A program made the translations under genes and the position numbers. Below, piece by piece: positions 22,986 through 39,157 of a stretch of DNA of 64,000 nucleotides. The notes below the pieces were generated by a model. The model made no database searches. It worked only from the letters and a program-made list of their open reading frames with translations, and was not told where the DNA came from. Every line of letters begins with the position of its first letter. Position 1 is the stretch's first letter. This DNA comes from Escherichia phage Killian. The stretch lies in sequence record OQ446694.1. One strand, 5' to 3'.

Positions 22986-22997
22986 TATTTATAAATA
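22986..22997. promoter_or_regulatory. Overlapping divergent late promoters between genes 26 (-) and 51 (+)
   Basis: TATTTATAAATA: TATAAATA reads on the plus strand at 22990-22997 and on the minus strand at 22986-22993. Confidence 0.6.
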
Positions 22998-23014
22998 GAA
23001 TAAAAGGAGCATCT

Positions 23015-23767
23015 ATGGCAAACATTATTCGTTGTAAATTACCAGATGGTGTTCATCGTTTTAAACCATTTACGGTAGAAGATTATCGAGATTTTTTGTT
23101 AGTTCGAAACGATATAGAACATCGGTCACCACAAGAACAAAAAGAAATAATTGCTGATTTAATTGCCGATTATTTTGGAGACTATCCGAAGACTTGGCAA
23201 CCATTTATATTTTTGCAGGTATTTGTAGGGTCAATAGGTAAAACTAAAGTACCGGTCACATTTGCATGTCCAAAATGCAAAAAAGAAAAGACAGTTCCAT
23301 TTGAAATATATCAAAAAGAATTAAAGGAACCTGTTTTTGATGTAGCTAATGTTAAAATTAAATTAAAGTTTCCTTCTGAGTTTTATGAAAATAAAGCAAA
23401 GATGATTACTGAAAATATTCATTCCGTTCAAGTAGATGAAATGTGGTATGATTGGAAGGAAATTAGCGAATCGAGTCAAATAGAACTTGTTGATGCCATC
23501 GAGATAGAAACATTAGAAAAAATTCTCGATGCAATGAATCCTATTAATTTAACATTGCATATGTCGTGTTGTAATAAGTATGTAAAAAAATACACTGATA
23601 TAGTAGATGTGTTTAAGCTATTAGTTAATCCAGATGAGATATTTACTTTTTATCAAATTAATCACACACTTGTAAAAAGTAATTATAGCTTAAATTCAAT
23701 AATGAAAATGATTCCTGCTGAGCGCGGATTCGTATTAAAACTGATTGAGAAGGATAAACAACAATGA
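23015..23767 (+). CDS. 51: Baseplate hub assembly catalyst gp51
   Basis: 250 aa; synteny 26-51-27. Confidence 0.85.
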
Positions 23768-24939
23768 GTATGTTGCAACGCCCCGGATATCCAAATCTCA
23801 GCGTTAAATTATTTGAGAGTTATGACGCTTGGAGTAATAATAGATTTGTTGAATTAGCTGCTACTATTACCACATTAACTATGCGGGATTCTCTTTATGG
23901 TCGAAATGAAGGAATGCTGCAGTTTTATGATTCTAAAAATATCCATACAAAAATGGATGGAAATGAAATAATTCAGATTTCTGTAGCTAATGCAAACGAT
24001 ATTAATAATGTTAAAACACGAATTTATGGATGTAAGCACTTTTCCGTATCGGTAGATTCAAAGGGTGATAACATCATTGCTATTGAATTGGGAACTATTC
24101 ATTCTATAGAAAATCTTAAATTTGGCAGACCGTTTTTCTCTGATGCAGGTGAATCTATAAAGGAAATGCTTGGTGTCATTTATCAGGATCGCACGTTATT
24201 AACTCCAGCAATAAATGCCATAAATGCCTATGTTCCTGATATTCCATGGACTAGCACATTTGAAAACTATTTGTCGTATGTCAGAGAAGTTGCTCTAGCT
24301 GTAGGAAGTGACAAATTTGTATTTGTATGGCAAGACATCATGGGAGTTAACATGATGGACTATGATATGATGATAAATCAAGAACCATATCCAATGATTG
24401 TCGGTGAGCCATCTTTAATAGGTCAATTCATCCAAGAATTAAAATATCCATTAGCATATGATTTCGTTTGGTTGACTAAATCGAATCCTCATAAACGCGA
24501 CCCAATGAAAAATGCTACTATTTATGCTCATTCATTTTTAGATTCTTCATTGCCAATGATTACTACAGGAAAGGGCGAAAACTCTATTGTAGTGTCAAGG
24601 TCAGGTGCTTATTCTGAAATGACTTATAGGAATGGCTATGAAGAAGCTATTCGTCTTCAAACTATGGCACAATACGATGGCTATGCTAAATGTTCTACTG
24701 TCGGTAATTTTAACTTGACTCCTGGCGTTAAAATTATTTTTAATGATAGTAAAAACCAATTTAAAACAGAATTTTACGTTGATGAAGTTATCCATGAATT
24801 ATCCAATAATAATTCAGTAACTCATCTATATATGTTCACTAATGCAACGAAACTGGAAACAATAGACCCAGTTAAGGTTAAAAATGAATTTAAATCTGAT
24901 ACTACCACTGAAGAAAGTAGTTCTTCCAATAAGCAATAA
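23764..24939 (+). CDS. 27: Baseplate hub protein gp27
   Basis: 391 aa, same as T4 gp27. Confidence 0.9.
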
Positions 24940-25417
24940 AGAAGTTTCTATTCCTAAAATGGGTCTTAAACATTATAACATTTTAAAAGATGTTAAAGGT
25001 CCTGATGAAAATTTAAAACTTCTTATTGATTCTATTTGTCCGAATTTATCACCGGCAGAAGTTGATTTCGTTTCTATTCATTTATTGGAATTTAATGGAA
25101 AGATTAAATCTCGTAAAGAAATAGATGGTTATACTTATGACATTAATGATGTTTATGTATGCCAAAGATTAGAATTTCAATACCAAGGAAATACATTTTA
25201 TTTTAGACCTCCTGGAAAATTTGAGCAATTTTTGACAGTAAGCGATATGTTATCTAAATGCTTGCTTAAGGTCAATGATGAAGTTAAAGAAATTAATTTT
25301 CTTGAGATGCCAGCATTTGTATTAAAATGGGCAAATGATATTTCTACAACTTTAGCAATTCCTGGCCCTAATGGTCCAATAACTGGAATTGGCAATATTA
25401 TTGGATTATTTGAATGA
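24884..25417 (+). CDS. 28: Baseplate hub distal subunit gp28
   Basis: 177 aa; overlaps the 3' end of gene 27. Confidence 0.85.
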
Positions 25418-27186
25418 AAAAGCCACAAGAAATGCAAACGATGCGTAGAAAAGTTATTTCAGATAATAAACCAGTTCAGGAAGCGGCTAAATCCGCTTCT
25501 AACACTTTATCTGGGCTTAATGACATTTCTACAAAATTGGATGATGCTCAAGCTGCTTCTGAATTAATAGCTCAAACCGTTGAAGAAAAATCGAATGAAA
25601 TAATTGGAGCAATTGACAATGTAGAAAGCGCAGTGAGTGATACTACTGCTGGTTCTGAGTTAATTGCTGAAACTGTAGAAATTGGCAACAATATTAATAA
25701 AGAAATCGGTGAATCACTCGGAAGTAAATTAGATAAATTAACGAGTTTACTAGAACAAAAAATTCAAACAGCTGGAATTCAACAGACAGGAACCAGCTTA
25801 GCTGTAGTCGAAAGTGCTATTCCCGTTAAAGTTGTCGAGGATGATACAGCTGAATTTGTTGGTCCATTATTACCAGCTCCTGAAGCAGTTAATAATGATC
25901 CTGACGCTGATTTTTTCCCTGCCCCTCAACCAGTTGAACCTAAGCGAGAGTCACCGGAAGAAAAACAGAAAAAAGAAGCATTTAATTTAAAATTATCTCA
26001 AGCTTTAGATAAATTAACAAAGACTGTTGATTTTGGATTTAAAAAATCCATTTCAATTACTGATAAAATATCAAGCATGCTATTTAAGTATACTGTCAGT
26101 GCTGCTATTGAAGCTGCTAAAATGGTTGCATTAATAATGGCTGTTGTTATTGGAATAGACCTACTGATGGTTCATTTTAAATATTGGTCAGATAAATTTT
26201 CAAAAGCCTGGGATTTGTTTAGCACTGATTTTAAAACTTTTTCAAGCGAAACCGGAACTTGGGGTCCTTTATTACAGAGCATCTTTGAATCTATTGATGA
26301 AATTAAAAAGTTCTGGGAAGCGGGAGATTGGGGCGGTTTGACGGTAGCTATTGTAGAAGGGCTTGGAAAGGTTCTTTATAATTTAGGAGAACTTATTCAG
26401 CTTGGAATGGCTAAATTATCAGCAGCAATTCTTCGAGTTATTCCTGGTATGAAAGATACTGCTGACGAAGTAGAAGGAAGAGCACTAGAAAATTTCCAAA
26501 ATTCTACTGGAGCATCTCTCAATAAAGAAGACCAGGAAAAAGTTGCAAATTATCAAGATAAACGAATGAACGGAGACCTTGGTCCGATAGCAAAAGGATT
26601 AGATAAAATTGCTAATTGGAAAACTCGTGCATCTAACTGGATTCGTGGCGTTGATAATAAAGAAGCACTAACTACCGATGAAGAACGCGCAGCAGAAGAA
26701 GAAAAATTAAAGCAACTTTCACCTGAAGAAAGAAAAAATGCTTTAATGAAGGCTAATGAAGCGCGCGCCGCGATGATTCGCTTTGAAAAATATGCTGATT
26801 CGGCTGATATGAGTAAAGACTCAACAGTTAAATCAGTTGAAGCTGCCTATGAAGACCTTAAAAAACGGATGGATGACCCGGATTTAAATAATTCACCGGC
26901 AGTTAAAAAAGAACTTGCTGCTAGATTTTCTAAAATTGATGCTACTTATCAAGAGCTCAAGAAAAATCAGCCTAATGCCAAACCTGAAACTTCTGCTAAA
27001 TCGCCAGAAGCAAAACAAGTCCAGGTAATAGAAAAGAACAAAGCACAGCAAGCTCCTGTTCAACAAGCATCTCCTTCAATCAATAATACTAATAATGTTA
27101 TTAAGAAAAATACTGTCGTTCATAATATGACACCCGTAACGAGCACAACTGCTCCTGGTGTATTTGGCGCGACTGGAGTTAATTAA
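25414..27186 (+). CDS. 29: Baseplate hub / tail length tape-measure protein gp29
   Basis: 590 aa, same as T4 gp29; low-complexity A/E/K-rich. Confidence 0.9.
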   Translation: MKKPQEMQTMRRKVISDNKPVQEAAKSASNTLSGLNDISTKLDDAQAASELIAQTVEEKSNEIIGAIDNVESAVSDTTAGSELIAETVEIGNNINKEIGESLGSKLDKLTSLLEQKIQTAGIQQTGTSLAVVESAIPVKVVEDDTAEFVGPLLPAPEAVNNDPDADFFPAPQPVEPKRESPEEKQKKEAFNLKLSQALDKLTKTVDFGFKKSISITDKISSMLFKYTVSAAIEAAKMVALIMAVVIGIDLLMVHFKYWSDKFSKAWDLFSTDFKTFSSETGTWGPLLQSIFESIDEIKKFWEAGDWGGLTVAIVEGLGKVLYNLGELIQLGMAKLSAAILRVIPGMKDTADEVEGRALENFQNSTGASLNKEDQEKVANYQDKRMNGDLGPIAKGLDKIANWKTRASNWIRGVDNKEALTTDEERAAEEEKLKQLSPEERKNALMKANEARAAMIRFEKYADSADMSKDSTVKSVEAAYEDLKKRMDDPDLNNSPAVKKELAARFSKIDATYQELKKNQPNAKPETSAKSPEAKQVQVIEKNKAQQAPVQQASPSINNTNNVIKKNTVVHNMTPVTSTTAPGVFGATGVN

Positions 27187-27194
27187 GGAATAAT

Positions 27195-28289
27195 ATGGCA
27201 ATTGTTAAAGAAATAACTGCTGATTTAATTAAAAAGTCCGGTGAGAAAATTTCAGCCGGACAGAGTACTAAATCAGAAGTAGGAACTAAAACATACACAG
27301 CCCAGTTTCCAACTGGGCGTGCTAGTGGTAATGACACTACAGGGGACTTCCAGGTAACAGATCTATATAAGAATGGATTATTATTTACTGCATACAATAT
27401 GTCATCTAGGGATTCTGGAAGTCTTAGATCGATGAGATCTAACTACTCTTCTTCATCTTCGAGTATTTTAAGTACAGCTAGAAACACTATTAGTAGTACA
27501 GTATCAAAACTATCAAATGGATTAATATCAAACAATAATTCAGGAACAATAAGTAAAGCTCCTGTCGCAAACATTCTTTTACCGAGATCTAAATCTGATG
27601 TTGATACATCATCACATAGATTTAATGATGTTCAAGAAAGTCTTATCAGCAGAGGCGGAGGTACTGCTACTGGTGTGTTAAGTAATATTGCTTCAACTGC
27701 AGTATTTGGGGCACTGGAAAGTATAACACAAGGTATAATGGCTGATAATAATGAACAGATTTATACGACAGCCAGAAGTATGTATGGCGGTGCTGAGAAT
27801 AGAACTAAAGTGTTTACATGGGATTTGACGCCACGTTCAACAGAAGATTTGATGGCTATTATTAATATCTATCAATATTTTAACTATTTTTCTTATGGTG
27901 AAACGGGCAAATCTCAATATGCTGCTGAAATAAAGGGGTATTTAGATGATTGGTATCGTTCTACGTTAATTGAACCTTTATCTCCGGAAGACGCAGCTAA
28001 AAATAAAACACTATTTGAGAAAATGACATCGAGTTTAACTAACGTTCTAGTAGTTTCAAACCCGACAATTTGGATGGTGAAAAACTTTGGTGCAACATCT
28101 AAGTTTGATGGAAAAACGGAAATATTTGGCCCATGCCAAATACAAAGCATCAGATTTGATAAAACACCTAATGGTAACTTTAACGGATTAGCTATTGCTC
28201 CAAACCTCCCTAGTACATTTACTCTCGAGATTACTATGAGAGAAATTATCACGTTAAACCGTGCTTCTTTATATGCGGGGACTTTTTAA
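27195..28289 (+). CDS. 48: Baseplate tail-tube cap gp48
   Basis: 364 aa; synteny. Confidence 0.9.
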   Translation: MAIVKEITADLIKKSGEKISAGQSTKSEVGTKTYTAQFPTGRASGNDTTGDFQVTDLYKNGLLFTAYNMSSRDSGSLRSMRSNYSSSSSSILSTARNTISSTVSKLSNGLISNNNSGTISKAPVANILLPRSKSDVDTSSHRFNDVQESLISRGGGTATGVLSNIASTAVFGALESITQGIMADNNEQIYTTARSMYGGAENRTKVFTWDLTPRSTEDLMAIINIYQYFNYFSYGETGKSQYAAEIKGYLDDWYRSTLIEPLSPEDAAKNKTLFEKMTSSLTNVLVVSNPTIWMVKNFGATSKFDGKTEIFGPCQIQSIRFDKTPNGNFNGLAIAPNLPSTFTLEITMREIITLNRASLYAGTF

Positions 28290-29254
28290 TGTATTCTTTA
28301 GAGGAATTTAATAATCAAGCAATAAACGCAGATTTTCAACGTAATAATATGTTTAGCTGCGTTTTTGCGACAACTCCATCAACTAAAAGCTCTTCGTTGA
28401 TAAGTTCAATTAGCAACTTTTCTTATAATAATTTGGGTCTAAATTCAGACTGGTTAGGATTGTCTCAAGGCGATATTAATCAGGGAATTACCACGCTAAT
28501 TACTGCTGGCACACAAAAACTGATAAGAAAATCAGGGGTTAGTAAATATCTTATTGGTGCCATGAGTCAACGTACAGTTCAAAGTTTATTGGGCTCATTT
28601 ACAGTTGGTACATATTTAATTGACTTCTTTAACATGGCATATAACTCGTCTGGATTGATGATATATTCTGTAAAAATGCCAGAGAATAGATTATCCTATG
28701 AAACTGACTGGAACTATAACTCTCCTAATATTCGTATAACTGGGAGAGAATTAGACCCTTTGGTTATTTCATTTAGAATGGATTCAGAAGCTTGTAACTA
28801 TCGTGCAATGCAAGACTGGGTTAACGCTGTTCAAGACCCAGTAACTGGACTGCGTGCTTTGCCACAAGATGTCGAGGCAGATATTCAGGTTAATCTTCAT
28901 GCTCGTAATGGATTACCTCATACTGCAGTGATGTTCACCGGATGCATTCCAGTGTCAGTGAGCGCTCCTGAGTTATCATATGATGGAGATAACCAAATAA
29001 CTACATTTGATGTTACTTTTGCGTATAGAGTCATGCAGGCTGGAGCAGTTGATAGACAAGCTGCCCTTGAATGGCTTGAATCTGCTGCTATAAACGGTAT
29101 TCAAAGCGTTCTCGGAAATAGTGGAGGTGTCACTGGATTATCTAATTCGCTTTCACGACTTAGTAGATTAGGGGGAACTGCTGGAAGCATTTCAAACATT
29201 AATACTATGACGGGAATTATCAACTCGCAAAGTAAAATATTAGGAGCAATATAA
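28289..29254 (+). CDS. 54: Baseplate tail-tube initiator gp54
   Basis: 321 aa; synteny. Confidence 0.9.
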   Translation: MYSLEEFNNQAINADFQRNNMFSCVFATTPSTKSSSLISSISNFSYNNLGLNSDWLGLSQGDINQGITTLITAGTQKLIRKSGVSKYLIGAMSQRTVQSLLGSFTVGTYLIDFFNMAYNSSGLMIYSVKMPENRLSYETDWNYNSPNIRITGRELDPLVISFRMDSEACNYRAMQDWVNAVQDPVTGLRALPQDVEADIQVNLHARNGLPHTAVMFTGCIPVSVSAPELSYDGDNQITTFDVTFAYRVMQAGAVDRQAALEWLESAAINGIQSVLGNSGGVTGLSNSLSRLSRLGGTAGSISNINTMTGIINSQSKILGAI

Positions 29255-29256
29255 CA

Positions 29257-29288
29257 ATGGGGACCTTTCGGTCCCCATGTTTTTATTT
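29257..29288. terminator. Bidirectional terminator GGGGACC-TTTC-GGTCCCC between 54 (+) and the alt operon (-)
   Basis: 7-bp GC stem followed by TTTTTATTT; convergent genes on both sides. Confidence 0.65.
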
Positions 29289-29573
29289 ACGGAATGAAAT
29301 AAAAGCAGCAACTGAAGCAACTAAACTGTCTTCAATATAAACTTCAATTTTTACCGGAGCTTCTGATTCAAATTTACCTGTTACTACACCCTGGAAAATG
29401 CTTTCAGTCTGTTCTGGCTTTGAAAAATTTTCAGAAGGAAAAATTCCGAACTTTTTATCTGTTCCAAAAATTTTGATAAATTCATCATAAACTGCTTCAT
29501 TAAAAGCGTTATCAGCAGGAATAACGCCTTCAACTACAAGTTCTTGACCTAAAAAGCGTAAAGAAGATTTCAT
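29283..29573 (-). CDS. Hypothetical protein downstream of the alt paralogs
   Basis: 96-aa ORF; no recognised motif. Confidence 0.55.
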   Translation of the reverse strand: MKSSLRFLGQELVVEGVIPADNAFNEAVYDEFIKIFGTDKKFGIFPSENFSKPEQTESIFQGVVTGKFESEAPVKIEVYIEDSLVASVAAFISFRK

Positions 29574-29633
29574 TTTGTGTTCCTCATGTTATGTCAGTAA
29601 GATTATTATAACACAGCACGAGGGACTTGTAAA

Positions 29634-31691
29634 CTACATCTTGAACTTTTTAGACATTCCGTTGATGTTAACCAAAGAAGCCAAGATTTGAGAAACTTCG
29701 TTTTCCTCTTCTTTTGATTCTTCTACAAGGAATTGATTAAATCCAGCCATTGGACGAACTTCACCAGTTTCCATCAGATGATCGCCATCATATACCGATT
29801 CTTCTAATTGTTCAGAAGGAGGAACGATTGTACCTTCGATTAAATACTTGTTATAAGCAGTTTCTTTCATCATGTACGTGCTCACTTTATTAATCTTCAG
29901 CAAAATTCCACGTGGTAAAATAACTTCAGCTTCTGACGGAAATCCTGATAAATGACCCGGAACGATAACTTTGATTCGCTCAGCTCCTTTTATTACCATA
30001 CCTACGCTAGTTTCAGCATCTTCATTCGCATAAGCAGAGTGACTGCCCATATGCATCAAATCTTCTGCGTCAACAGAACCTTCTCCTTCACCAGAAAATA
30101 CTGCACTGGAATCATCTAGAGCCATATAGTTTTTACCATACTCACCGAAGATATTTGGTTTAAGCGATGTGGATACGAAGTTCTTAAAATAGAACATTTT
30201 ATTTTCAATATTATGACGTAAAGTTTTAAAGGTAACTTCTTGGCCACGGTAAAGCGTAGTTCCTGGAGGAAGAACTGATCCTTTGGCAAAAGCAGAATCC
30301 ATCGTCTCGATGTGTTTAATAGCTCGTTCCATATATTCTTCACGAGTAGAATCCGGTTTACCTAAAAGGAACGAGTTCATTTCAACATATGAATCCGCGC
30401 AATAATCTTCAATTACATCAGACTCAGCCTGAGTTAATCCTTTTGGGGGTACTTCAGTACTTGCATATTCATACGCTTGAGAAGCAGACTCATTAATCAA
30501 TTTATAAATGCCATTCATGACAAATTGAACAATAGCTACCTTTTCGTCTGGCGTGGCTTTAGAACCTTTAACTAAATCATTGATAATTTTCTTAATAACA
30601 TCAAAGCTATTAGAAATATTAATGTCAGCGAGATCGCTCAAAATTTTATCGGTTTTATAATCAAAGAATTCTTTATTCTTTAAATATTCTTGAGAACCTT
30701 GATATGTTATATCGCTCTGCAGTCTGATAGACGGATCACGTAAACGTGCATGGGCCAATGCAATATGATTTCGGAAGCTTTCTAGTTCATAATCGTTAGA
30801 TTTAAAACGAGAAGCACTTCTCATACCACCGATAGCTCCTTTGCTGAAGTTTGAACCAATCTGAATAACGCCAGAGTTCATTGGTCCTTCTGCTTTATAT
30901 ACCGGAACTTTAGATTCAAACTCTTGATATTTCTTGGCAGCGAAGCTATCACCCTGTAGCGAAGCATCGACAGTAGAATATTGAGCTTGTGCTGCTAATC
31001 GACGACTAATTTTAGTTTTCTGAATAACAGCTTGATCCGTGCGCTTATCATTTTCTAAAGCAATAGAAGCAGCAACAGCAACAGCTTTAGGAACAGCATT
31101 ACCTGTTTTAACATCTACATAAACATCACCAACCTTTGATTCAACTTTTGTGAATAACTCAGTTGAAATAGGAGGTACACCTGGAATGTCTTCTAAATTG
31201 GCATTTTTACGGTAAACCATAATATATGCATACTTTTTATCATAGTCCCAGATTTCCTTTAAAAGAACATATCGACCTGCTCCTTTAGTACGTACTAAAC
31301 GGTCAGCAATAACTTGCATTTGACGAGCAGCGCCATTTGTTTTACTTTTTAGTACGCGGAATAGGCATGCGTCAATTTTATACTGTTTCATTGTTTGAAG
31401 AGCAGTATCAAAAACCGCATTAATGACACCAATTGGATTTCCACCCAAGTTTTTAAGTTTAACTAATGATAGTTTCTCATTGACACCTATCATTACGATA
31501 TGCATCATTTTATCGCCTGGCTTAACGTTTTTATTTGTATCACCACCGGAGGTGTATGTACAAAATCTAAATCCAGGAAGCACGCTTTCTTCACCGGCTT
31601 GAATAGCAAAAATTTGAGGTATTTTATGCTTAGGATTTAAGTTAACAACCGGCGCCGAAGCGCCGTCAAATAATTCTGTAATAAGTTCCAT
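29634..31691 (-). CDS. alt: Alt-like ADP-ribosyltransferase, paralog 1 (head-packaged)
   Basis: 685 aa; N-terminal MELITELFD propeptide-like; C-terminal R-S-E ART motifs YRGQ, FVSTSL, EAEVILPRG. Confidence 0.85.
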   Translation of the reverse strand: MELITELFDGASAPVVNLNPKHKIPQIFAIQAGEESVLPGFRFCTYTSGGDTNKNVKPGDKMMHIVMIGVNEKLSLVKLKNLGGNPIGVINAVFDTALQTMKQYKIDACLFRVLKSKTNGAARQMQVIADRLVRTKGAGRYVLLKEIWDYDKKYAYIMVYRKNANLEDIPGVPPISTELFTKVESKVGDVYVDVKTGNAVPKAVAVAASIALENDKRTDQAVIQKTKISRRLAAQAQYSTVDASLQGDSFAAKKYQEFESKVPVYKAEGPMNSGVIQIGSNFSKGAIGGMRSASRFKSNDYELESFRNHIALAHARLRDPSIRLQSDITYQGSQEYLKNKEFFDYKTDKILSDLADINISNSFDVIKKIINDLVKGSKATPDEKVAIVQFVMNGIYKLINESASQAYEYASTEVPPKGLTQAESDVIEDYCADSYVEMNSFLLGKPDSTREEYMERAIKHIETMDSAFAKGSVLPPGTTLYRGQEVTFKTLRHNIENKMFYFKNFVSTSLKPNIFGEYGKNYMALDDSSAVFSGEGEGSVDAEDLMHMGSHSAYANEDAETSVGMVIKGAERIKVIVPGHLSGFPSEAEVILPRGILLKINKVSTYMMKETAYNKYLIEGTIVPPSEQLEESVYDGDHLMETGEVRPMAGFNQFLVEESKEEENEVSQILASLVNINGMSKKFKM

Positions 31692-31694
31692 GAT

Positions 31695-33791
31695 TTATCC
31701 TTGAATGAACTTGTAAGGCATGTTTGCAATATCTATGCAAGATGCAATAATTCCAAGAGATGATTCTACTTTTTGTTTAACATTTGATGAAACAAATGAT
31801 GCAAAGTCAACTCTGTCTTCTATTTCAATATCACCTGCCATTGCAACTACTTCACCAGTTTCCATTAGACGGTCACCGTCATAAATTACTGATTCAGTGA
31901 GTTCTTCCGTAGTCATAACTTCAGCTTGAATGAGTTTTGTATTATTAGATGTTGTTCCGTCATTATTAGAAGCATCAGTTATTTTATTAACTTTGACCAT
32001 CAATCCGCGTGGTAGAATAACTTCAGCTTCTGTTGCTATTCCGAGGCTTCCTGGATATACAACATTAACTTTATGAGCTCCATCAATTGCCCATCCTATT
32101 TGAACTTTAACGTATTCGGGATTTTCTTTATACGCTCTTATTTCGTTTGAATTAATAGTTATTCCTTCTTCATTTTTATCAACTGTCAATTCATTACGAG
32201 CTTCTGGTTCTAAAAGACCAATACCAGCATGTGTAATTCCAAAACGTCCAAAAATGATAGGAGTTAAAGAAGTAGATACAAAATTTCTGAAATAGAACAC
32301 TTTATTTTTAACTAGTGCTTCGTATATAGGAGCAGTCATGCTTTGAGCACGATAAACTGTAATGCCTTCTGGTATACGGTCACCATTTTCAAAGGCTGAA
32401 TCTAAATTATTTATCGCAGATTCAATTTCTTTTTCACTCATTACCTCATATCGTTCTGGATTGTAGCGACCTAAAAGAAGATTATTGATGTCAGTATATC
32501 CTGAACCACAATACTCTCTAATGCCGCGCTTTTGTGATGGAGTATATTTAGAACCATCACGAGCAATAGTAATATCAATCATTGGACCTGCACCAATTCC
32601 AGAAAAACTATAAATCATTCTTTTGAGGAATTTAGTTTTTGCTGCGTTCCAGGAATTTTTAGTTATTTCTTCCCAGACTTCATCTGGCTGTCCTTTACGG
32701 GTTTTATTATGTTTATCAAGCCAATTATCTTTATATTCTTCAAATAATTGATTAACAGCTGCTGCGTATTTCTCTAAACATTTTATTGAAGTAGTTGGTT
32801 CATTTTTAATCGCATTAAGAATTACATCTTTAATTTTTTCAGAAACTTCATTAACCTCACTTTTTGAAAAGAATTTATAGTCATAATGAAGTTCATCTGC
32901 AGTTCCTTCAGCAATAATTTTTGCTGCCTTAGTTTTAGAAGCTAATGAATTAATTCCAAGCTTCATTTCTTCCGCTTCGGGAATTAAAGGAGCGGTAGCA
33001 GGTTTATTGAAATTAGCTGCGGTAGATTCATACTTCTGGAATAATTCACTTTCAAATCTAGAAGATTCTAATGACTGACTTTGCGCAATTGCTCTACGGG
33101 AAATTTTAACTTTAACGATTACAGCTTGGTCAGAACGTTTATCATTTTCTTGTGCAATAGATGCTGCAATTGCCTCATTTTTAGTTACTTGAGCTCCAGT
33201 ATCTTTATTGATATAAACATCACCGACTTTCGATTCAACTTTAGTAAAGAGCTCGGTACTAATTTCTGGAACTCCTGGAATGTCTTCTAATGATACATTT
33301 TTGCGATGTATAAGAATATATGCGTACTTTTTATCGTAATCCCAGAGTTCCTTAAGAAGGACGTATCTGCCACCTGAACGACTGCGGATAAGTCTATCAG
33401 CAATAAGTTGAATTTGTCGAGCTTGACCAGCAGTTTTAGACTTAAGAATACGGAGCATGCAGGCATCAATTTTATACTGACGCATCGTTTGCATTGCAAC
33501 TGTAAAAACTGAATTGATATAATTAATTGGGCTTGGACCGAGACCTTTTAATTTAGCAATTGAACCTTTAGCAGTTAATGTAAAAGGAACAATATGCATC
33601 ATTTTATCGCCCATCTTTAAATCGCGATTAGTATCACCTCCAGATGTATAGGTACATAAACGAAAGCCTGGTTGTTCAATTGCGTCATCAACGTGAACTG
33701 AAAAAATTTGCGGTATTTTCTTCTTTGGATTTAAGTTTGTAATCGGAAGAGTAGTATCTTCGTCAAATAATTCTGTAATGAGTTCCATCAT
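31695..33791 (-). CDS. Alt-like ADP-ribosyltransferase, paralog 2
   Basis: 698 aa; same N-terminal MELITELFD and C-terminal motifs YRAQ, FVSTSL, EAEVILPRG; central region divergent from paralog 1; start may be the second Met (33788). Confidence 0.85.
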   Translation of the reverse strand: MMELITELFDEDTTLPITNLNPKKKIPQIFSVHVDDAIEQPGFRLCTYTSGGDTNRDLKMGDKMMHIVPFTLTAKGSIAKLKGLGPSPINYINSVFTVAMQTMRQYKIDACMLRILKSKTAGQARQIQLIADRLIRSRSGGRYVLLKELWDYDKKYAYILIHRKNVSLEDIPGVPEISTELFTKVESKVGDVYINKDTGAQVTKNEAIAASIAQENDKRSDQAVIVKVKISRRAIAQSQSLESSRFESELFQKYESTAANFNKPATAPLIPEAEEMKLGINSLASKTKAAKIIAEGTADELHYDYKFFSKSEVNEVSEKIKDVILNAIKNEPTTSIKCLEKYAAAVNQLFEEYKDNWLDKHNKTRKGQPDEVWEEITKNSWNAAKTKFLKRMIYSFSGIGAGPMIDITIARDGSKYTPSQKRGIREYCGSGYTDINNLLLGRYNPERYEVMSEKEIESAINNLDSAFENGDRIPEGITVYRAQSMTAPIYEALVKNKVFYFRNFVSTSLTPIIFGRFGITHAGIGLLEPEARNELTVDKNEEGITINSNEIRAYKENPEYVKVQIGWAIDGAHKVNVVYPGSLGIATEAEVILPRGLMVKVNKITDASNNDGTTSNNTKLIQAEVMTTEELTESVIYDGDRLMETGEVVAMAGDIEIEDRVDFASFVSSNVKQKVESSLGIIASCIDIANMPYKFIQG

Positions 33792-33811
33792 ATCCTCTCT
33801 AGTGTTTATTC

Positions 33812-33819
33812 TATTTATA
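33812..33819 (-). promoter_or_regulatory. Late promoter TATAAATA (minus strand) upstream of the alt paralog pair
   Basis: Plus-strand TATTTATA, about 20 nt upstream of the ATG at 33791. Confidence 0.5.
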
Positions 33820-33825
33820 AAATTA

Positions 33826-33843
33826 AAGGCCCGAAGGCCTTTA
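33826..33843 (-). terminator. Hairpin AAAGGCC-CGAA-GGCCTTT between the 62-aa ORF and alt
   Basis: Perfect palindromic stem with tetraloop. Confidence 0.4.
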
Positions 33844-34029
33844 ATAATCTATTGGTAAGAGAGTACGATATATTTCAAACTTTGGGCCTTTTTCATAGGC
33901 ATCAAATGTTTCTGTGAATTTATTATAAGCATATGCATCTATAAATTCAATCATAATTTGTGATACAGAAGTAGAAACATCTCCACCTTCTTTTTGAGCC
34001 ACGACAATTGTTTCTAAGTAAGCTTTCAT
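33841..34029 (-). CDS. Hypothetical small protein between ligase and alt
   Basis: 62-aa ORF whose start overlaps the ligase stop. Confidence 0.5.
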   Translation of the reverse strand: MKAYLETIVVAQKEGGDVSTSVSQIMIEFIDAYAYNKFTETFDAYEKGPKFEIYRTLLPIDY

Positions 34030-35486
34030 AGACCAGTTACCTCATGAAAATCACCAAATACATCCTCGAATGTATTAGCTTTAGTTTTATCTTCACGCAA
34101 ACGAATCGCAATCGGAAGAAATAATTTAACGTAATCAGTGCGGCCATCAGATTTTAACCAACCATTACATTCGCACTCTAGAATTTTTCCAATATAATAA
34201 TTTTGGTTTTCCATAATGCGAGTACGGTCAAGTTCATGCGATTTTACACCGGCTTTATCTTTTAAGCCTGAACCAGCATTTACTTTAATTTTTCCACATT
34301 CTGATTCAAGAATAAATCCACCCGCTTTAGTAGGGTCTTTACGGTGAGGATAAATTCCTACAATTTTTAAATCAACATCAATTACTTCTTTAAATTTATA
34401 GAGATTTTTTGAACGAGCATTTTCCCATAATCCATCGATATTTTTGAGAATAATACCTTCAAGACCTTGGTCAATATACTTTTTATAAATTACCTTAGCT
34501 TCATCTAGGTTATTTACTATCTGGTTTTCAATTAAAATTACTTTATCATATCCTGATGTCATTTGTTCTAGTTTAGAAAAACGTACATCATATTTTAAAC
34601 GAAATGCTGGAAGACCGTATATTTCTACCAACGGGACATAATCCCAGACCTGAAACTTCATGCATTTGGCTTCTTTTTCTGAAATAGTTCCCTTTAAAGA
34701 TTTATTGGCGATTCCATTAGAAGCAGTACGCGATTCAGCTACTTCGGAAAACTCTTTAGCTTTACTGATTTCAGGAGCATCAAAAAGAAAATCTAGGCCT
34801 TCTGGCTCCTTTTCAACTTGCTCATGGTATACCAATTCGCCATCAATTAACACGCCTTCTGGATGAATCTGGCGAGCTTCAGCAGTCATTTTGATTAACT
34901 CTTCCTTAAGAAGATCTAATCCTAGATATTCATTACCAGCTCGTGATAAAAGACGAACATCATCTAATTCATCGCCTCGGACTTCAGCAAAACACCGAGC
35001 TCCATCTGCTTTTAACTGTGCAAAAGCTGGAAATTTGATATTCTTACTAATGCCTTTTTCATCATAAGAACTTGCCAGCATTTGAGGTTGTTCAGGAATT
35101 AAACCTGGCCAAACTTTATTTGCGATAGATACTGAAGCACCGCATTCAAGATCTCGCATCATAACTCGACGCAAAACTTCAACATCATCCTTTTTACCAT
35201 CAGTGATATATCCAGTTAATTCCTCAATTGCAGCATTTCCAGTCAATTTCCGAGTAGCTAACGTGAATTCAATGAAGTCAAGCATATCGGTAATAGTCAG
35301 CATTCCAAAACTCTGGGTAGCAATACCAGGTTTAGGCCATTTCTTGATATAATACTGTAACCCACGAGAATAAGTCAGACGATATACTCGTTTAAGCAAT
35401 TCATTATCTTTATTCTTTTCAAGAATTGCTTGCTTCTGCTTAGTTGATCCAATAGATGCTATTTCATTCAGAATTTTAAGAATCAT
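34026..35486 (-). CDS. 30: ATP-dependent DNA ligase gp30
   Basis: 486 aa (T4 ligase 487 aa); adenylation-site lysine motif KADGAR. Confidence 0.95.
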   Translation of the reverse strand: MILKILNEIASIGSTKQKQAILEKNKDNELLKRVYRLTYSRGLQYYIKKWPKPGIATQSFGMLTITDMLDFIEFTLATRKLTGNAAIEELTGYITDGKKDDVEVLRRVMMRDLECGASVSIANKVWPGLIPEQPQMLASSYDEKGISKNIKFPAFAQLKADGARCFAEVRGDELDDVRLLSRAGNEYLGLDLLKEELIKMTAEARQIHPEGVLIDGELVYHEQVEKEPEGLDFLFDAPEISKAKEFSEVAESRTASNGIANKSLKGTISEKEAKCMKFQVWDYVPLVEIYGLPAFRLKYDVRFSKLEQMTSGYDKVILIENQIVNNLDEAKVIYKKYIDQGLEGIILKNIDGLWENARSKNLYKFKEVIDVDLKIVGIYPHRKDPTKAGGFILESECGKIKVNAGSGLKDKAGVKSHELDRTRIMENQNYYIGKILECECNGWLKSDGRTDYVKLFLPIAIRLREDKTKANTFEDVFGDFHEVTGL

Positions 35487-35752
35487 TGCTCATCCTTCAA
35501 GGTTTGGTTTACAGCTCTATTATAAATCAATTCATCATTAAGCTCAGGCAAAGACCTATGATATGTAGTTCTAACTTTATTTCCTTGCATCCAGTGCTTA
35601 ACGTAAATGAAACCTTGCTCTACACATTTTTTAAAAATTCGTTCGTCTTTTTGAGCTCGGAATTTTGGATTACATCTAAAAAATTGATTTACGTGACCGT
35701 AATCACGTGTAGTATTACCTTCATTTTCATAAATAGTGTGAACGACAAACAT
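35483..35752 (-). CDS. Hypothetical protein (30.1 position)
   Basis: 89-aa ORF, start overlaps ligase. Confidence 0.55.
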   Translation of the reverse strand: MFVVHTIYENEGNTTRDYGHVNQFFRCNPKFRAQKDERIFKKCVEQGFIYVKHWMQGNKVRTTYHRSLPELNDELIYNRAVNQTLKDEQ

Positions 35753-36591
35753 TAGAATGCTCCTTGGAAAATATTATCACCGCTAGTAGGTCTATTATAC
35801 AAATACTCTATGCCACCAGGTTTAATATAGTTCCATGTCTGAAATGGATGTGTCTGATATGGATGATATAGATGATTATAAGGATTAAATCCAGGCGTTC
35901 TCCAGGTAGTGTTCCAAGGAAAAGAATCGTTTTTAACCATCTTCTCAATTAAATCTTTTACAGCTTTTTCACTATCAAAACTTTCTTTATTTTCCTTCGG
36001 CGAAAAAAGCTTATTTTCTACATCATTCCATGTATAAACTCGCTGAGCAGTTTTTGGAATATTGTCACGCTCTCCTCGAGCCATCCAATAAACAGGAACA
36101 TTTAATATTTCACTCGCATGATCGCAGTGATGAGCGAGATCGTCAATATAACAAATTACGTTATATTTCTCTTTTGCCTTTTTAAACAACTCTTCTTTTG
36201 AAGAATCATGACCACACATCATTACTTCTGAGAAGGCACCAGGAAAAAGAGCATTCAAATTAAATTGACGATTCAACAGAGCGTCAATAGAATCACCCAA
36301 TGCTGTGACAGCTACAAAATTATAATCTTCTTTTAATTTGTTAATTACACACAGTGCATCTTTATATGGAGACAAGTAACGAATAAAATCTGATCGATTA
36401 TATTTTTCAATTAGCTTGACACCGAGTTCTTCATCACAATTAAAGAGTTTACCTGGAGAAATAAATTTCTCATCTTGGATCATTTTTAAAATATGTTCTA
36501 ACGGAAGATTATATTTCTGAGCAAAATAAGGAAGACCTGATTGCCAGCTTAAACATACTCCATCAATATCAGTTAAAATAGTAGGCTTCAT
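35752..36591 (-). CDS. HAD-superfamily phosphatase-like protein (30.2 position)
   Basis: 279 aa; N-terminal ILTDIDGV (HAD motif I, DxDG) and later YIDD motif. Confidence 0.65.
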   Translation of the reverse strand: MKPTILTDIDGVCLSWQSGLPYFAQKYNLPLEHILKMIQDEKFISPGKLFNCDEELGVKLIEKYNRSDFIRYLSPYKDALCVINKLKEDYNFVAVTALGDSIDALLNRQFNLNALFPGAFSEVMMCGHDSSKEELFKKAKEKYNVICYIDDLAHHCDHASEILNVPVYWMARGERDNIPKTAQRVYTWNDVENKLFSPKENKESFDSEKAVKDLIEKMVKNDSFPWNTTWRTPGFNPYNHLYHPYQTHPFQTWNYIKPGGIEYLYNRPTSGDNIFQGAF

Positions 36592-37052
36592 AGAGAGTCT
36601 CTTAATAGGTTTAACACATCAATAAATTCAGCTTCGGTTAGTATTGTATCATCTTTTGTTAGACCACTAGCCATGCTGTGCTTCAAAACTTTTCCTTTCG
36701 AGGCTTGTAATGCATCACGAAAGCCCCTGTTTTGGAACGCTGCTTCAAAATATGCATTTGTGTATAATTCTTTCCACGCTGGAGAGTATCTTGAAAACTG
36801 AACTCCAAGCCAGAAGAGGGTCCCACGGTCCTGAGCTCTAGCATAAGCTCGTCCAGCTTGTTGGGCGGCAAGCCCGGATAACCCAAATATACGATGTTGC
36901 TGTTCAACATTTTTCACCTTGCATCCTTGGAGGAATCCTTCGAGACCTCCAAATTGGATACCATCCATAACAAAAGGCCATTGGGCGAAATTACTTAATG
37001 CACATGATGGCCATCTAAAATTGCTTCTAATCTCTAACTCAGACATTTTCAA
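36588..37052 (-). CDS. NADAR / YbiA-family protein (30.3 position)
   Basis: 154 aa; LSNFAQWPFVMDG...EGFLQGCK parallels the E. coli YbiA signature FSNFAAWPIKVDG...EHYFQAQK. Confidence 0.7.
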   Translation of the reverse strand: MKMSELEIRSNFRWPSCALSNFAQWPFVMDGIQFGGLEGFLQGCKVKNVEQQHRIFGLSGLAAQQAGRAYARAQDRGTLFWLGVQFSRYSPAWKELYTNAYFEAAFQNRGFRDALQASKGKVLKHSMASGLTKDDTILTEAEFIDVLNLLRDSL

Positions 37053-37254
37053 TACTTATAATTTCAACATCAGCCCAATGACCGTAACTTGGTAAACGGT
37101 CTTCAATAGATAATCCGCCATCATATTTAAGCATTTTAATTGTCATAATATATGGCTCTAAATGGTCTTCAGTGAGCGGAGAGACATCAGTCACACGATA
37201 AGTAACTTCGACCATTTCCGTGCCCAGTAATTTCTTGATTAATTTCTTAAACAT
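37039..37254 (-). CDS. Hypothetical protein (30.4 position)
   Basis: 71-aa ORF in the operon. Confidence 0.5.
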   Translation of the reverse strand: MFKKLIKKLLGTEMVEVTYRVTDVSPLTEDHLEPYIMTIKMLKYDGGLSIEDRLPSYGHWADVEIISIENV

Positions 37255-37258
37255 TTTA

Positions 37259-37546
37259 TTAGAACCTCATCTGAAAACCGTGCGATTTAACACTACCGCC
37301 GCCAATATCAGAAATATTAATTTCACGCGCAATTGAAGGGTCAATGTCAATTTCACGATTGAGTTTAGTGATAGCTAAAGTATCGCGGCCATTTACAGTA
37401 CGGAACTCTAAAGGGCAGACTACATTAACATAGTTTTTAATCGATTCACTGGTAGGTTGCAAATGAGCAGGAAGGTCTTTAGGCGCCTTAGAGAAAACCA
37501 CTTCACAGAAATTTTTGCGGGTATCAAAATAAGTAGTCATAAACAT
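37259..37546 (-). CDS. Hypothetical protein (30.5 position)
   Basis: 95-aa ORF. Confidence 0.5.
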   Translation of the reverse strand: MFMTTYFDTRKNFCEVVFSKAPKDLPAHLQPTSESIKNYVNVVCPLEFRTVNGRDTLAITKLNREIDIDPSIAREINISDIGGGSVKSHGFQMRF

Positions 37547-37587
37547 AGTATTTTCCTCAGTAAGGGGCCGAAGCCCCTCATTTTATT

Positions 37588-37953
37588 TTAAATATCAAAT
37601 TCGTTAAGAACTACATCAAAGATTGCTTCAAGATGCTCAGGTTTAGCTCTGTTACTCAGAATATGACGAATCCAAGTTTTAACCAGAAGCTTGCGATTAA
37701 CACCATTCCAGCAAGGATGAGTCCCTAAATCGCGTTGACGAAAATCATCATCCAAAGCGATTTTGAAGTTGGAACCTTCCATTGTGATTGAAACCGTGAT
37801 GCCATTTTCAAATCGCATATAAACGTAGTTAGGAGTCATATACTGTTCAATTTCGCATACTGATCCATTTTGATGTTTCCAAAGGCAAATAGTATCAATA
37901 GAACCTGCAATACCATTAGAAACATATTTACGTTCAAAGTTGATGTAGTTCAT
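37588..37953 (-). CDS. Hypothetical protein (30.7-like)
   Basis: 121-aa ORF. Confidence 0.5.
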   Translation of the reverse strand: MNYINFERKYVSNGIAGSIDTICLWKHQNGSVCEIEQYMTPNYVYMRFENGITVSITMEGSNFKIALDDDFRQRDLGTHPCWNGVNRKLLVKTWIRHILSNRAKPEHLEAIFDVVLNEFDI

Positions 37954-38021
37954 TTTTATTCTCCGAGCTGTTTAATTGCGGTACAGGTATATAATATCAT
38001 ATCCTGTACCAAAGTAAACAA

Positions 38022-38354
38022 TTATTTTACTACTTTCCAGTGCTGCATGTCAAGTTTACCAACTTTTTTCATCTTCTCAATTAAGCGTTCGGCGCGTTGG
38101 CGAGCTGTAACATAATACCATTCACCCAATTCATTTTGTTCAATTTTTCCAACGATTACTGTATTCAATTCATAAATCCAACCAGTAAAGAAATTATGAA
38201 CTTGAATTGTAAAGGTGAAATCTGTTCCCATACCTTCTGTTGTTTCTACTTCAATAATATCACCTTCAACTGCCATTAAGAACCACATAGTTTCATCATA
38301 TTTACCATTGAAGCATTTAGTTTTAACTGCAGCGTTCAGATTAATCGTTTTCAT
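38022..38354 (-). CDS. Hypothetical protein (30.8-like)
   Basis: 110-aa ORF. Confidence 0.5.
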   Translation of the reverse strand: MKTINLNAAVKTKCFNGKYDETMWFLMAVEGDIIEVETTEGMGTDFTFTIQVHNFFTGWIYELNTVIVGKIEQNELGEWYYVTARQRAERLIEKMKKVGKLDMQHWKVVK

Positions 38355-38430
38355 TTTATTCTCCTTTGTTTGTGTAAGATAATACTATCACAAAGGAACC
38401 ATACTGTAAACAACTTTGTGCAGTCTTTGG

Positions 38431-38460
38431 AAAATAAAAAAGGACTCCCGAAGGAGTCCT
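38431..38460 (-). terminator. Rho-independent terminator AGGACTCC-CGAA-GGAGTCCT plus U-tract after the small basic protein gene
   Basis: 8-bp stem; plus-strand AAAATAAAAA gives a U-run after the hairpin on the minus-strand transcript. Confidence 0.65.
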
Positions 38461-38464
38461 CAAC

Positions 38465-38641
38465 TTATGCTTTCTGCTTACCAAAACGAGAAGCATCATC
38501 TCGAAGAACCGCACGTGCTCGGCGCATGATCTTCTCAACAGTTTGATTGATACGAGAGTTCGACCCACGCTTGTAACCAGCGCGTTTAGAATCACCAACT
38601 TTCTTTTCAACTGCTTTCTTTGCTTTAGCTTGTTTTGCCAT
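38465..38641 (-). CDS. Small highly basic protein (30.9 position)
   Basis: 58 aa from the internal ATG (MAKQAKAKK...), K/R-rich; the longer track start at 38683 would run through the rIII-distal hairpin. Confidence 0.55.
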   Translation of the reverse strand: MAKQAKAKKAVEKKVGDSKRAGYKRGSNSRINQTVEKIMRRARAVLRDDASRFGKQKA

Positions 38642-38761
38642 TATAAATTCTCTTTTAAATGAAAATGCAGGACTTATTGGCATTGCCTGCGCAAGCCCTC
38701 AAGGGGAACATAGGTTTTTGAATATTTAACGACCAGGATAACCATAAACCCGTCATCATAC

Positions 38762-39010
38762 TTACTTCAGTGTTACCACAAAATGACGAACTGCTTTTCG
38801 TGCAGCAGAAGCCAGTGGCTTAGCATATTTAAGTTCATCTTTTTCCTGAAGCTCAGCAGCTAATGCAGTTTGAGCAGGATTTAGATGTTTGAAATAACGC
38901 AGGATTTCAAGAGCTTCGGCTTCAACATCAATAGATGCGCCATAGTTTTCGTGACCATTATTCCATGCGTTTCGTTGCAGTTCAAGAGCGTGTTGTAATT
39001 GTTTAATCAT
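38762..39010 (-). CDS. rIII: Lysis-inhibition accessory protein rIII
   Basis: 82 aa (T4 rIII is 82 aa), directly downstream of gene 31 on the minus strand. Confidence 0.75.
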   Translation of the reverse strand: MIKQLQHALELQRNAWNNGHENYGASIDVEAEALEILRYFKHLNPAQTALAAELQEKDELKYAKPLASAARKAVRHFVVTLK

Positions 39011-39157
39011 TTAAAAATTCTCGTTAGAGATTAAAACTCGGTAGTCACGTTCTTCTGAATTTCATCTTCTTTCGACAGATCTCTCAGTTGTAGACTACCA
39101 CATAGAATTGTTCGGTTAACTTATTATTCCGACACCCAATTCATATTATTATTTATA

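Follow-up and report, generated by a model that had tools for sequence, protein, structure and literature searches.

A tandem pair of Alt-family ADP-ribosyltransferase genes in a T2-like Tequatrovirus, including the intact form of a gene lost from T4

Results

Two adjacent alt genes in a predicted late operon

Each head of phage T4 contains about 40 copies of Alt, which is injected into the host (PMC9958956, PMC9026906). The stretch of Escherichia phage Killian analysed here (64,000 nucleotides of sequence record OQ446694.1; hereafter the window) encodes two proteins of this type side by side, which raises the question of what the second one is and whether it too is delivered from the virion. 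As the initial annotation had described, two adjacent minus-strand ORFs are separated by 3 nt, and both products share the start (M)MELITELFD. We term the genes altA and altB; their products are identical to the GenBank entries WEU67970.1 (AltA) and WEU67969.1 (AltB) of phage Killian.

31695-33791, minus strand: altA ORF, 698 aa when counted from the first ATG and 697 aa when counted from the second (33788), which is the one annotated as start in T4
29634-31691, minus strand: altB ORF, 685 aa
31692-31702, minus strand: altA-altB junction, with AAGGA, the TAA stop and the 3-nt spacer, followed by ATG
33812-33819, minus strand: T4-type late promoter TATAAATA, upstream of altA and the only one in the two-gene unit
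33825-33842, minus strand: G+C-rich, terminator-like hairpin aaaggccttcgggccttt, located where alt.1 ends and close upstream of the late promoter

The pair lies between gene 54/alt.-3 and alt.1/gene 30. At the junction, a Shine-Dalgarno-like AAGGA (31698-31702) precedes the altA TAA (31695-31697), the spacer atc (31692-31694) and the altB ATG (31689-31691), a layout that suggests co-transcription and translational coupling of the two genes. The same 3-nt spacing recurs in the alt pair of phage JS10 and between the three alt genes of MX01. The sequence context of TATAAATA upstream of altA is identical in T4. From 22994 to 39149 the minus strand has no further TATAAATA, and a late promoter belonging to altB was rejected on this basis. 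A single late promoter thus likely drives both genes, and we infer late expression of altB from its co-transcription with altA. The hairpin aaaggccttcgggccttt, also identical in T4, was read directly from the letters and was not called by the scan tool.

Both proteins carry the complete catalytic set

Pfam family PF03496 (ADPrib_exo_Tox) was matched by AltA (E 3e-37, 128.2 bits) and by AltB (E 3e-20, 72.9 bits), in both cases above the curated cut-off of 23.4 bits; PF26846 is also listed for the two proteins in a precomputed table. Each protein aligned end to end with phrog_802 (E 7e-272 for AltA and 5e-255 for AltB), and both display the full-length T4 Alt architecture of that family (PHROG 802), namely an N-domain, a helical middle, an ADP-ribosyltransferase (ART) domain of the C3/VIP2-type fold and a C-tail. 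AltA is numbered here from the second ATG.

33102-33770, minus strand: AltA N-terminal domain (aa 7-229), 99% identical to T4 Alt
32559-33077, minus strand: AltA helical middle (aa 238-410)
31893-32558, minus strand: AltA ADP-ribosyltransferase domain (aa 411-632)
32349-32351, 32274-32276, 32028-32030 and 32022-32024, minus strand: AltA catalytic codons R480, S505, E587 and E589
31008-31673, minus strand: AltB N-terminal alpha/beta domain (aa 7-228), conserved and lineage-specific
30456-30986, minus strand: AltB all-helical middle (aa 236-412), hypervariable across the family
29799-30455, minus strand: AltB ADP-ribosyltransferase domain (aa 413-631)
30246-30248, 30171-30173, 29931-29933 and 29925-29927, minus strand: AltB catalytic codons R482, S507, E587 and E589
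29637-29798, minus strand: predicted AltB C-terminal propeptide (aa 632-685), after LEE-631

R480/S505/E587/E589 of AltA correspond to R482/S507/E587/E589 of AltB, and all are invariant in a 53-sequence family alignment. The E-x-E motif is the signature of arginine-specific ADP-ribosyltransferases. An earlier reading had credited both proteins with a complete R-S-E signature and with the motifs YRGQ/YRAQ, FVSTSL and EAEVILPRG; every one of these was found, and its refuting case, a copy devoid of catalytic residues, is contradicted by the alignment. From their sequences, both proteins would be Alt-family arginine-specific mono-ADP-ribosyltransferases with a complete R / S-T-S / E-x-E set, and we hold it probable that the locus as a whole is a two-gene late operon of such enzymes in a T2-like Tequatrovirus.

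The AltB catalytic domain was modelled with high confidence and the N-domain with a pLDDT of about 80-94, while pLDDT is low from residue 629 onward. Compared with T2, dN/dS is 0.05 for altB and 0.06 for altA, with purifying selection in every domain. Both genes are, on this sequence evidence, intact and under strong purifying selection.

AltA corresponds to T4 Alt and AltB to a gene that T4 has lost

AltA is 70% identical overall to T4 Alt (NP_049811, a head-packaged NAD+--arginine ADP-ribosyltransferase) and occupies the same position, between alt.1 and alt.-3 and next to ligase gene 30, with the same late promoter context, R/STS/ExE residues and ITE/LTE protease motifs. The two proteins hardly differ over the first 245 and the last ~100 residues; by region, identity is 99% in the N-domain, 32% in the middle, 64-66% in the catalytic domain and 91-92% in the C-tail. 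Against the a-type genes of Dhakavirus, by contrast, the AltA middle is 65-67% identical and the catalytic domain 92-95%; here AltA and T4 Alt represent different alleles, AltA being closer to the Dhakavirus a-type. AltA is 98% identical to T2 Alt, and about 316 records contain its middle at >90% DNA identity. By sequence comparison altA is the ortholog of T4 alt in its T2-type allele, and the middle and catalytic region of T4 Alt is a minority allele.

AltB is a separate paralog of the same architecture and motifs, of which T4 has no functional form. It is 41-42% identical to AltA and T4 Alt (BLASTP of AltA against AltB: 41% identity, E 5e-163), 98% identical to the unnamed second Alt-like gene of T2 and 48% identical to JS10 altb. 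The T4 genes alt.-1 and alt.-2 (NP_049810, NP_049809), which the T4 record itself attributes to an old duplication involving the first part of alt, run colinear with altB over its first ~350 nt and its last ~15 nt, where DNA identity is about 95%. Their PHROGs match AltB residues 1-56 and 62-117 (E 2e-40 and 3e-38, versus 1e-21 and 2e-19 for AltA). The end points of the deletion in T4 fall at two copies of a 9-nt direct repeat:

31344-31352, minus strand: upstream copy of CTAAAAAGT, one T4 deletion end point
29645-29653, minus strand: downstream copy of CTAAAAAGT, the other T4 deletion end point

Removing the 1,699 bp between the CTAAAAAGT copies reproduces the end of T4 alt.-2, and the T4 remnant also bears a 1-nt frameshift. 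As judged from this colinearity, altB is the intact version of a gene whose loss in T4 came about by a 1.7-kb deletion together with a frameshift. In all, 91 phage records (T4 and 90 others) have the T4-type junction, which indicates that AltB is dispensable, at least on laboratory hosts.

Both alt genes are found in about 400 phage records, T2 and T6 included, and about four in five of the sequenced Tequatroviruses holding the region carry the second intact Alt gene; 401 phage records contain the AltB middle itself, at a DNA identity of 92-98%. The T2 pair (YP_010073851, annotated alt, and YP_010073850) has the same tandem order, 3-nt spacer and flanking genes and, at 98% identity, shows no substantive difference. 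In JS10, whose genes were named alta and altb in 2008 (ACL78420, ACL78419), the order, spacer and flanks are shared and the middle, the catalytic domain and the tail are orthologous, whereas the N-domains belong to the Dhakavirus type. Whether the pair had been annotated in relatives of T4, a point left undecided at the outset, can thus be answered: it is annotated in T2, T6 and JS10 and its relic is noted in the T4 record. The tandem pair is already known, being deposited, annotated and widespread, and brings no genomic novelty.

The alt locus is modular

Between AltA and AltB, identity is 67% over the N-terminal region (1-235), 17-19% over the middle (236-412), about 35-36% over the catalytic region (413-625) and 43% over the tail. 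The N-domains share the same fold elements in the predicted models. Profile-profile comparison of the two middle types with hhalign returned no homology (probability 0.3%). Both middles are nonetheless all-helical in the models, with a similar order of helices, and may be one fast-evolving helical domain rather than unrelated modules. In addition, both models align to that of SP18 Alt over 665-674 columns with a target-normalised TM-score of 0.74-0.76; this full-length alignment, an indirect comparison through a third model, weakens the idea of different modules. The proposal of homologous ends around an unrelated centre therefore holds for the ends and for the missing profile homology, though the middles possibly have one fold in common. 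The catalytic domains differ in the residues before E-x-E and in an insertion between S-T-S and E-x-E.

Recent gene conversion of the N-region was considered and rejected, as the repeats shared by the two genes reach no more than 70-82% DNA identity outside the first 31 nt (94%). Between the window and T2 the middle showed no diversifying selection (dN/dS 0.09-0.12), leaving an arms-race reading unsupported at this time scale.

Across the family, the N-domain is conserved, and ~1,200 Straboviridae records contain an Alt N-domain. Co-resident N-domains are 67% identical in Tequatrovirus, 65-90% in Dhakavirus and 49% in an Aeromonas Biquartavirus, versus at most 45% across lineages; that of AltB is 67% identical to its AltA counterpart versus 43-44% to its Dhakavirus orthologs. 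The middle and catalytic domain co-vary as one cassette, the A and B types are distinct and orthologous across Tequatrovirus and Dhakavirus, alt copy number ranges from 1 to 3, and in MX01 the middle gene joins a b-type N-domain to a third cassette and an a-type tail. These patterns suggest that the N-domain is the phage-specific part, lineage-locked as expected of a module fitting the phage's own head core, and that the middle plus catalytic domain is an exchangeable effector cassette that has probably moved between phage genera. The initial annotation had envisaged a shared packaging module, a shared catalytic domain and middles that might recognise different targets, a role that would be putative. 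The first of these agrees with an N-domain that is lineage-specific and similar between the paralogs; the second does not fit a catalytic domain that is only ~35% identical and co-varies with the middle. Nor is a divergent middle the mark of this pair: the middle varies throughout the Alt family.

Predicted packaging, processing and action

The cleavage sites of T4 Alt were mapped experimentally to ITE-6 and LTE-619 (PMC5694885). At the homologous positions AltA has ITE and LTE and AltB has ITE-6 and LEE-631, motif matches at which cleavage is predicted only. The [LI]xE motif is kept in 47 (N-terminal) and 46 (C-terminal) of the 53 family representatives, with the two P1 glutamates forming nearly invariant alignment columns. 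Since both proteins retain [LI]xE at the T4 cut positions, packaging into the head, trimming at the two ends and injection are probable for each of them.

We infer the following course of events. [quoted passage not shown] Both would be injected with the DNA and would ADP-ribosylate arginines of host proteins at a stage when no phage gene is yet expressed. Like T4 Alt, AltA probably modifies RNA polymerase alpha along with further proteins. Since AltB differs in its middle-plus-catalytic cassette, its range of substrates is probably different or shifted. The packaging, processing, injection, activity and targets proposed for AltB are all extrapolated from T4 Alt, because the searchable literature (subscription-only papers being outside its scope) returned no experiment on AltB, its only matches being a 2006 note on the alt duplication (PMC1524935) and general T4 Alt reviews; likewise, no virion proteomics separating AltA from AltB was found in the literature.

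Discussion

What AltB contributes can be read in several ways. It is possible, though somewhat less likely than not, that the alt locus is a small polymorphic array of injected effectors, in which a lineage-locked delivery domain is joined to cassettes exchanged between genera in one to three copies, and that AltB has targets unlike the classic Alt ones, possibly defence or toxin-antitoxin components. A redundant backup, packaged and injected like AltA and modifying essentially the same host targets (RNA polymerase alpha and others) for extra dose or robustness, appears rather unlikely. It would accord with the common architecture and catalytic residues and with the tolerated absence of AltB from T4 and 90 further records; moreover, Depping 2005, as cited in PMC5512222 and PMC9026906, reportedly found many targets for T4 Alt, making overlap plausible. 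However, catalytic domains that are only about 35% identical and differ before E-x-E and in the insertion following S-T-S are poorly matched to such a role, as are A and B types that stay distinct and orthologous in two genera, and strong purifying selection on both genes is unusual for a simple spare copy.

That AltB is active but unpackaged, acting late in the producing cell as a late-expressed equivalent of ModA/ModB, is improbable. Although altB has no promoter of its own and is merely read through from altA, its product keeps the N-domain of the packaged enzyme and both protease-site motifs, all conserved family-wide, and late expression beside baseplate genes is the context of packaged Alt homologs (PMC5512222, PMC9503650). 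Least credible by far is a decaying or non-catalytic duplicate: T4 does hold only a deleted, frameshifted remnant, but the full-length ORF persists in about 400 records with every invariant catalytic residue, a confident catalytic model and a catalytic-domain dN/dS of 0.04 relative to T2.

Such a polymorphic array would have parallels elsewhere. Alt proteins have the catalytic fold of the C3-like/VIP2/iota-toxin R-S-E clade (PF03496) and its R, S-T-S and E-x-E residues, to which they add an N-terminal alpha/beta domain of ~230 aa, a helical region of ~180 aa and terminal propeptides; Alt is delivered from the phage head, whereas the toxins are secreted. Polymorphic toxins and MuF-fused packaged effectors (PMC5512222, PMC9503650) likewise pair a constant delivery part with exchangeable effectors, in variable copy number at one locus. 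No MuF domain was detected in the Alt pair, the N-domain having no Pfam match and no MuF-like structure among its top matches, and the AltB N-domain has no sequence match in Pfam or PDB. Unlike polymorphic toxin loci, the alt locus has no evident immunity gene, and T4 Alt is not counted among the genuine polyvalent proteins by Iyer et al. 2017 (PMC5512222) and Iyer et al. 2022 (PMC9503650).

Our comparison suggests that textbook T4 is the exception, and that most sequenced Tequatroviruses with the region have a second intact, strongly conserved Alt that is probably injected like T4 Alt. This calls for caution when T4 serves as the model for the injected ADP-ribosylation programme of T2, T6 or therapeutic T4-like phages. 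If the array reading is true, decades of work on T4 would have missed the effects of AltB, T4 itself being a natural deletion mutant for altB. The pattern of a fixed N-domain and a mobile cassette may also offer a testable handle on the part of Alt that directs head packaging.

Tandem alt genes with conserved ends and divergent middles

The window is a segment of a T4-like (Tequatrovirus) phage, with genes 29, 48 and 54 on the plus strand and the alt locus on the minus strand; the gene order is identical in T4. Following the usage in JS10, the upstream gene was named altA and the downstream gene altB.

Features of the alt locus
29257-29278: bidirectional terminator, after the alt.-3 promoter
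29283-29573, minus strand: alt.-3, 96 aa, Pfam DUF5498
29634-31691, minus strand: altB, 685-aa ORF
31695-33791, minus strand: altA, 698-aa ORF
33841-34029, minus strand: alt.1, 62 aa, full-length match to Pfam PF24647 'Phage_blade' (E 7.5e-29)
34026-35486, minus strand: DNA ligase gene 30

The initial annotation described two adjacent minus-strand ORFs with conserved ends and a divergent middle, which proved correct in every detail. The proteins are 41% identical (BLASTP, E 5e-163), with 67% identity across residues 1 to 235, 36% in the catalytic domain and 43% in the tail versus 19% in residues 236 to 412, where profiles of the A-type (altA-like) and B-type (altB-like) middles displayed no detectable homology (hhalign probability 0.3%). 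Both match the Alt PHROG family over their whole length and Pfam PF03496 well above cut-off. In an alignment of 53 Alt-family representatives, the catalytic residues were invariant: the Arg, the S-T-S Ser and the two E-x-E Glu. AltA and AltB each carry all of these, confirming the complete R-S-E signature claimed for both. In precomputed Pfam annotation, PF03496 is accompanied in all full-length Alt homologs by PF26846.1, which probably represents the N-terminal region of Alt.

AltA is orthologous to T4 Alt. The first 245 and last ~100 residues of the two are nearly identical, with 32% identity in the middle and 64 to 66% in the catalytic domain; identity to T2 Alt is 98%. AltB shares 42% identity with T4 Alt and 98% with the product of the gene adjoining alt in T2. 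The small T4 ORFs alt.-1 and alt.-2 are considered to reflect an old alt duplication both in the T4 RefSeq record and by Nolan et al. 2006 (PMC1524935). The first ~350 nt of altB are colinear with these ORFs, except for a 1-nt frameshift, after which the T4 region runs straight into the final ~15 nt of altB. The join falls within a 9-nt direct repeat, CTAAAAAGT, whose copies in the window lie at 31344-31352 and 29645-29653; therefore, the 1,699 bp between the repeats have been lost in T4. AltB is missing from this model phage.

Expression of the locus

The T4 late-promoter motif TATAAATA at 33812-33819 (minus strand) is the only one on this strand near altA and altB. Exactly as in T4, it follows a G+C-rich hairpin where alt.1 ends and precedes the start of altA. 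The alt.1 stop codon sits inside the hairpin stem, and alt.1 overlaps the ligase stop by 4 nt. A search for the late-promoter motif on the same strand near the genes revealed no promoter belonging to altB itself. The altA/altB junction reads TAA-atc-ATG with AAGGA directly upstream, a 3-nt spacer plus Shine-Dalgarno sequence that suggests a single late bicistronic altA-altB message.

Immediately beyond the altB stop is a strong early-type promoter for alt.-3 (11 of 12 consensus positions plus TG), comprising a -35 element GTTTAC and a TG-extended -10 element TATAAT. The altB stop codon and the -35 element overlap; thus, an early gene, alt.-3 (29283-29633 with its promoter, minus strand), directly follows the late operon on the same strand. 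C-terminal extensions of T4 Alt.-3 allow escape from the CmdTAC defence system (PMC11618068).

Packaging and processing motifs

T4 Alt is a head-core protein present in about 40 copies and injected with the DNA (PMC9958956, PMC9026906). Mass spectrometry has placed gp21 cleavage after ITE-6 and LTE-619, removing 63 C-terminal residues (PMC5694885). The homologous positions read ITE and LTE in AltA, ITE-6 and LEE-631 in AltB, and LNE with LQE and LNE with LSE in the JS10 proteins. Among the 53 representatives, [LI]xE fits 47 sequences at the N-terminal cut and 46 at the C-terminal cut, the glutamates of both motifs forming nearly invariant columns. At the level of these motifs, AltA and AltB are both predicted to undergo processing, to mature proteins of 626 aa (70.1 kDa) and 625 aa (69.2 kDa).

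Two consecutive ATG codons open altA (MMELITE; 33786-33791, minus strand), as they do in T4 (L001 7501-7506, the second one annotated). Reviews give the T4 Alt N-terminal propeptide as six (PMC5694885) or seven residues (PMC9026906), figures that would match the two possible starts.

Predicted structure

AlphaFold2 modelling with the family alignment as input gave models of good quality (AltB, pLDDT 80.9, pTM 0.73; AltA, pLDDT 82.6, pTM 0.71). In each, an alpha/beta N-domain (about 1-225) is followed by a middle made up entirely of helices (about 230-410), then by the catalytic domain and a tail that is poorly ordered and starts near the C-terminal cleavage motif. Helix order and length are similar in the two middles. 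The models were compared through a shared BFVD model of SP18 Alt rather than by direct superposition, and each aligned to it full-length, with target-normalised TM-scores of 0.74 to 0.76 at about 30% identity. The similar helices and common match argue that both middles probably represent a single fast-evolving helical domain and not unrelated insertions.

In some Acinetobacter T4-like phages (ZZ1, Henu6), Alt is encoded by two separate genes as a 'split RNA polymerase ADP-ribosylase' (BFVD I3WW50, A0A410T5F4, A0A410T542), natural evidence that the N-terminal and catalytic parts can exist as separate polypeptides.

Modular evolution

Family-wide, residues 1 to 225 are conserved and 226 to 425 hypervariable, the stretch from S-T-S to E-x-E holds a variable insertion (about 526-550), and conservation returns around the C-terminal cleavage motif. 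Against many distant relatives, AltB gave two separate matching stretches, the N-domain and the catalytic domain, with nothing between.

We compared Tequatrovirus (the window, T4), Dhakavirus (JS10, MX01) and one Aeromonas Biquartavirus. Paralogs from one phage have N-domains that are 67%, 65 to 90% and 49% identical, respectively, always above the identity to any N-domain from another lineage (at most 45%). A-type/B-type orthology across genera holds for the remaining parts: middle, catalytic domain and tail alike. The catalytic domain of AltA is 92 to 95% identical to those of Dhakavirus a-type genes, whereas the N-domains of the same proteins are only 44% identical, and the catalytic domain of T4 Alt is 64% identical to that of AltA. 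This points to exchange of the effector cassette (middle plus catalytic domain; 31893-33077, minus strand, compared with L003 and L005) between genera, and shows that T4 carries a minority allele. In Escherichia phage MX01, three alt genes lie in tandem with 3-nt spacers (L005 3413-9673); the central gene is chimeric, joining a b-type N-domain (88 to 90%), a third, unrelated cassette (11 to 21% identical to all others in the middle, 35 to 42% in the catalytic domain) and an a-type tail (68%). Together, these patterns argue that the varying unit is the middle and catalytic domain together, on a lineage-locked N-domain.

The interpretation in the initial annotation is partly supported. Sequence-level support is good for a delivery part that both proteins share, along with conserved processing motifs. 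The catalytic domain, however, is not constant between them and varies with the middle as one unit. This arrangement would be consistent with an N-domain that fits each phage's own head core; target recognition by the middle is putative. Compared with T2, altA and altB of the window display strong purifying selection in every domain (dN/dS 0.05-0.06 for the whole genes, 0.09-0.12 in the middles). The paralogs show no sign of having undergone recent gene conversion with each other.

Distribution

No experimental work on the second enzyme, AltB, was found in the searchable literature. At least 80% of the two-gene region is covered in 342 phage records; many of these list alt_1/alt_2 or a pair of Alt-like ADP-ribosyltransferases. 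The exact AltA and AltB sequences are both in GenBank under Escherichia phage Killian, and the pair was named alta and altb in JS10 (Dhakavirus, deposited 2008). The tandem pair is therefore an already known, annotated and widespread feature, settling a point on which the initial annotation was undecided; among close T4 relatives, T2 has the gene neighbouring alt. The altB middle region occurs at 92 to 98% DNA identity in 401 records, including T2, and the T4-type deletion junction in 91; T6 lacks this junction.
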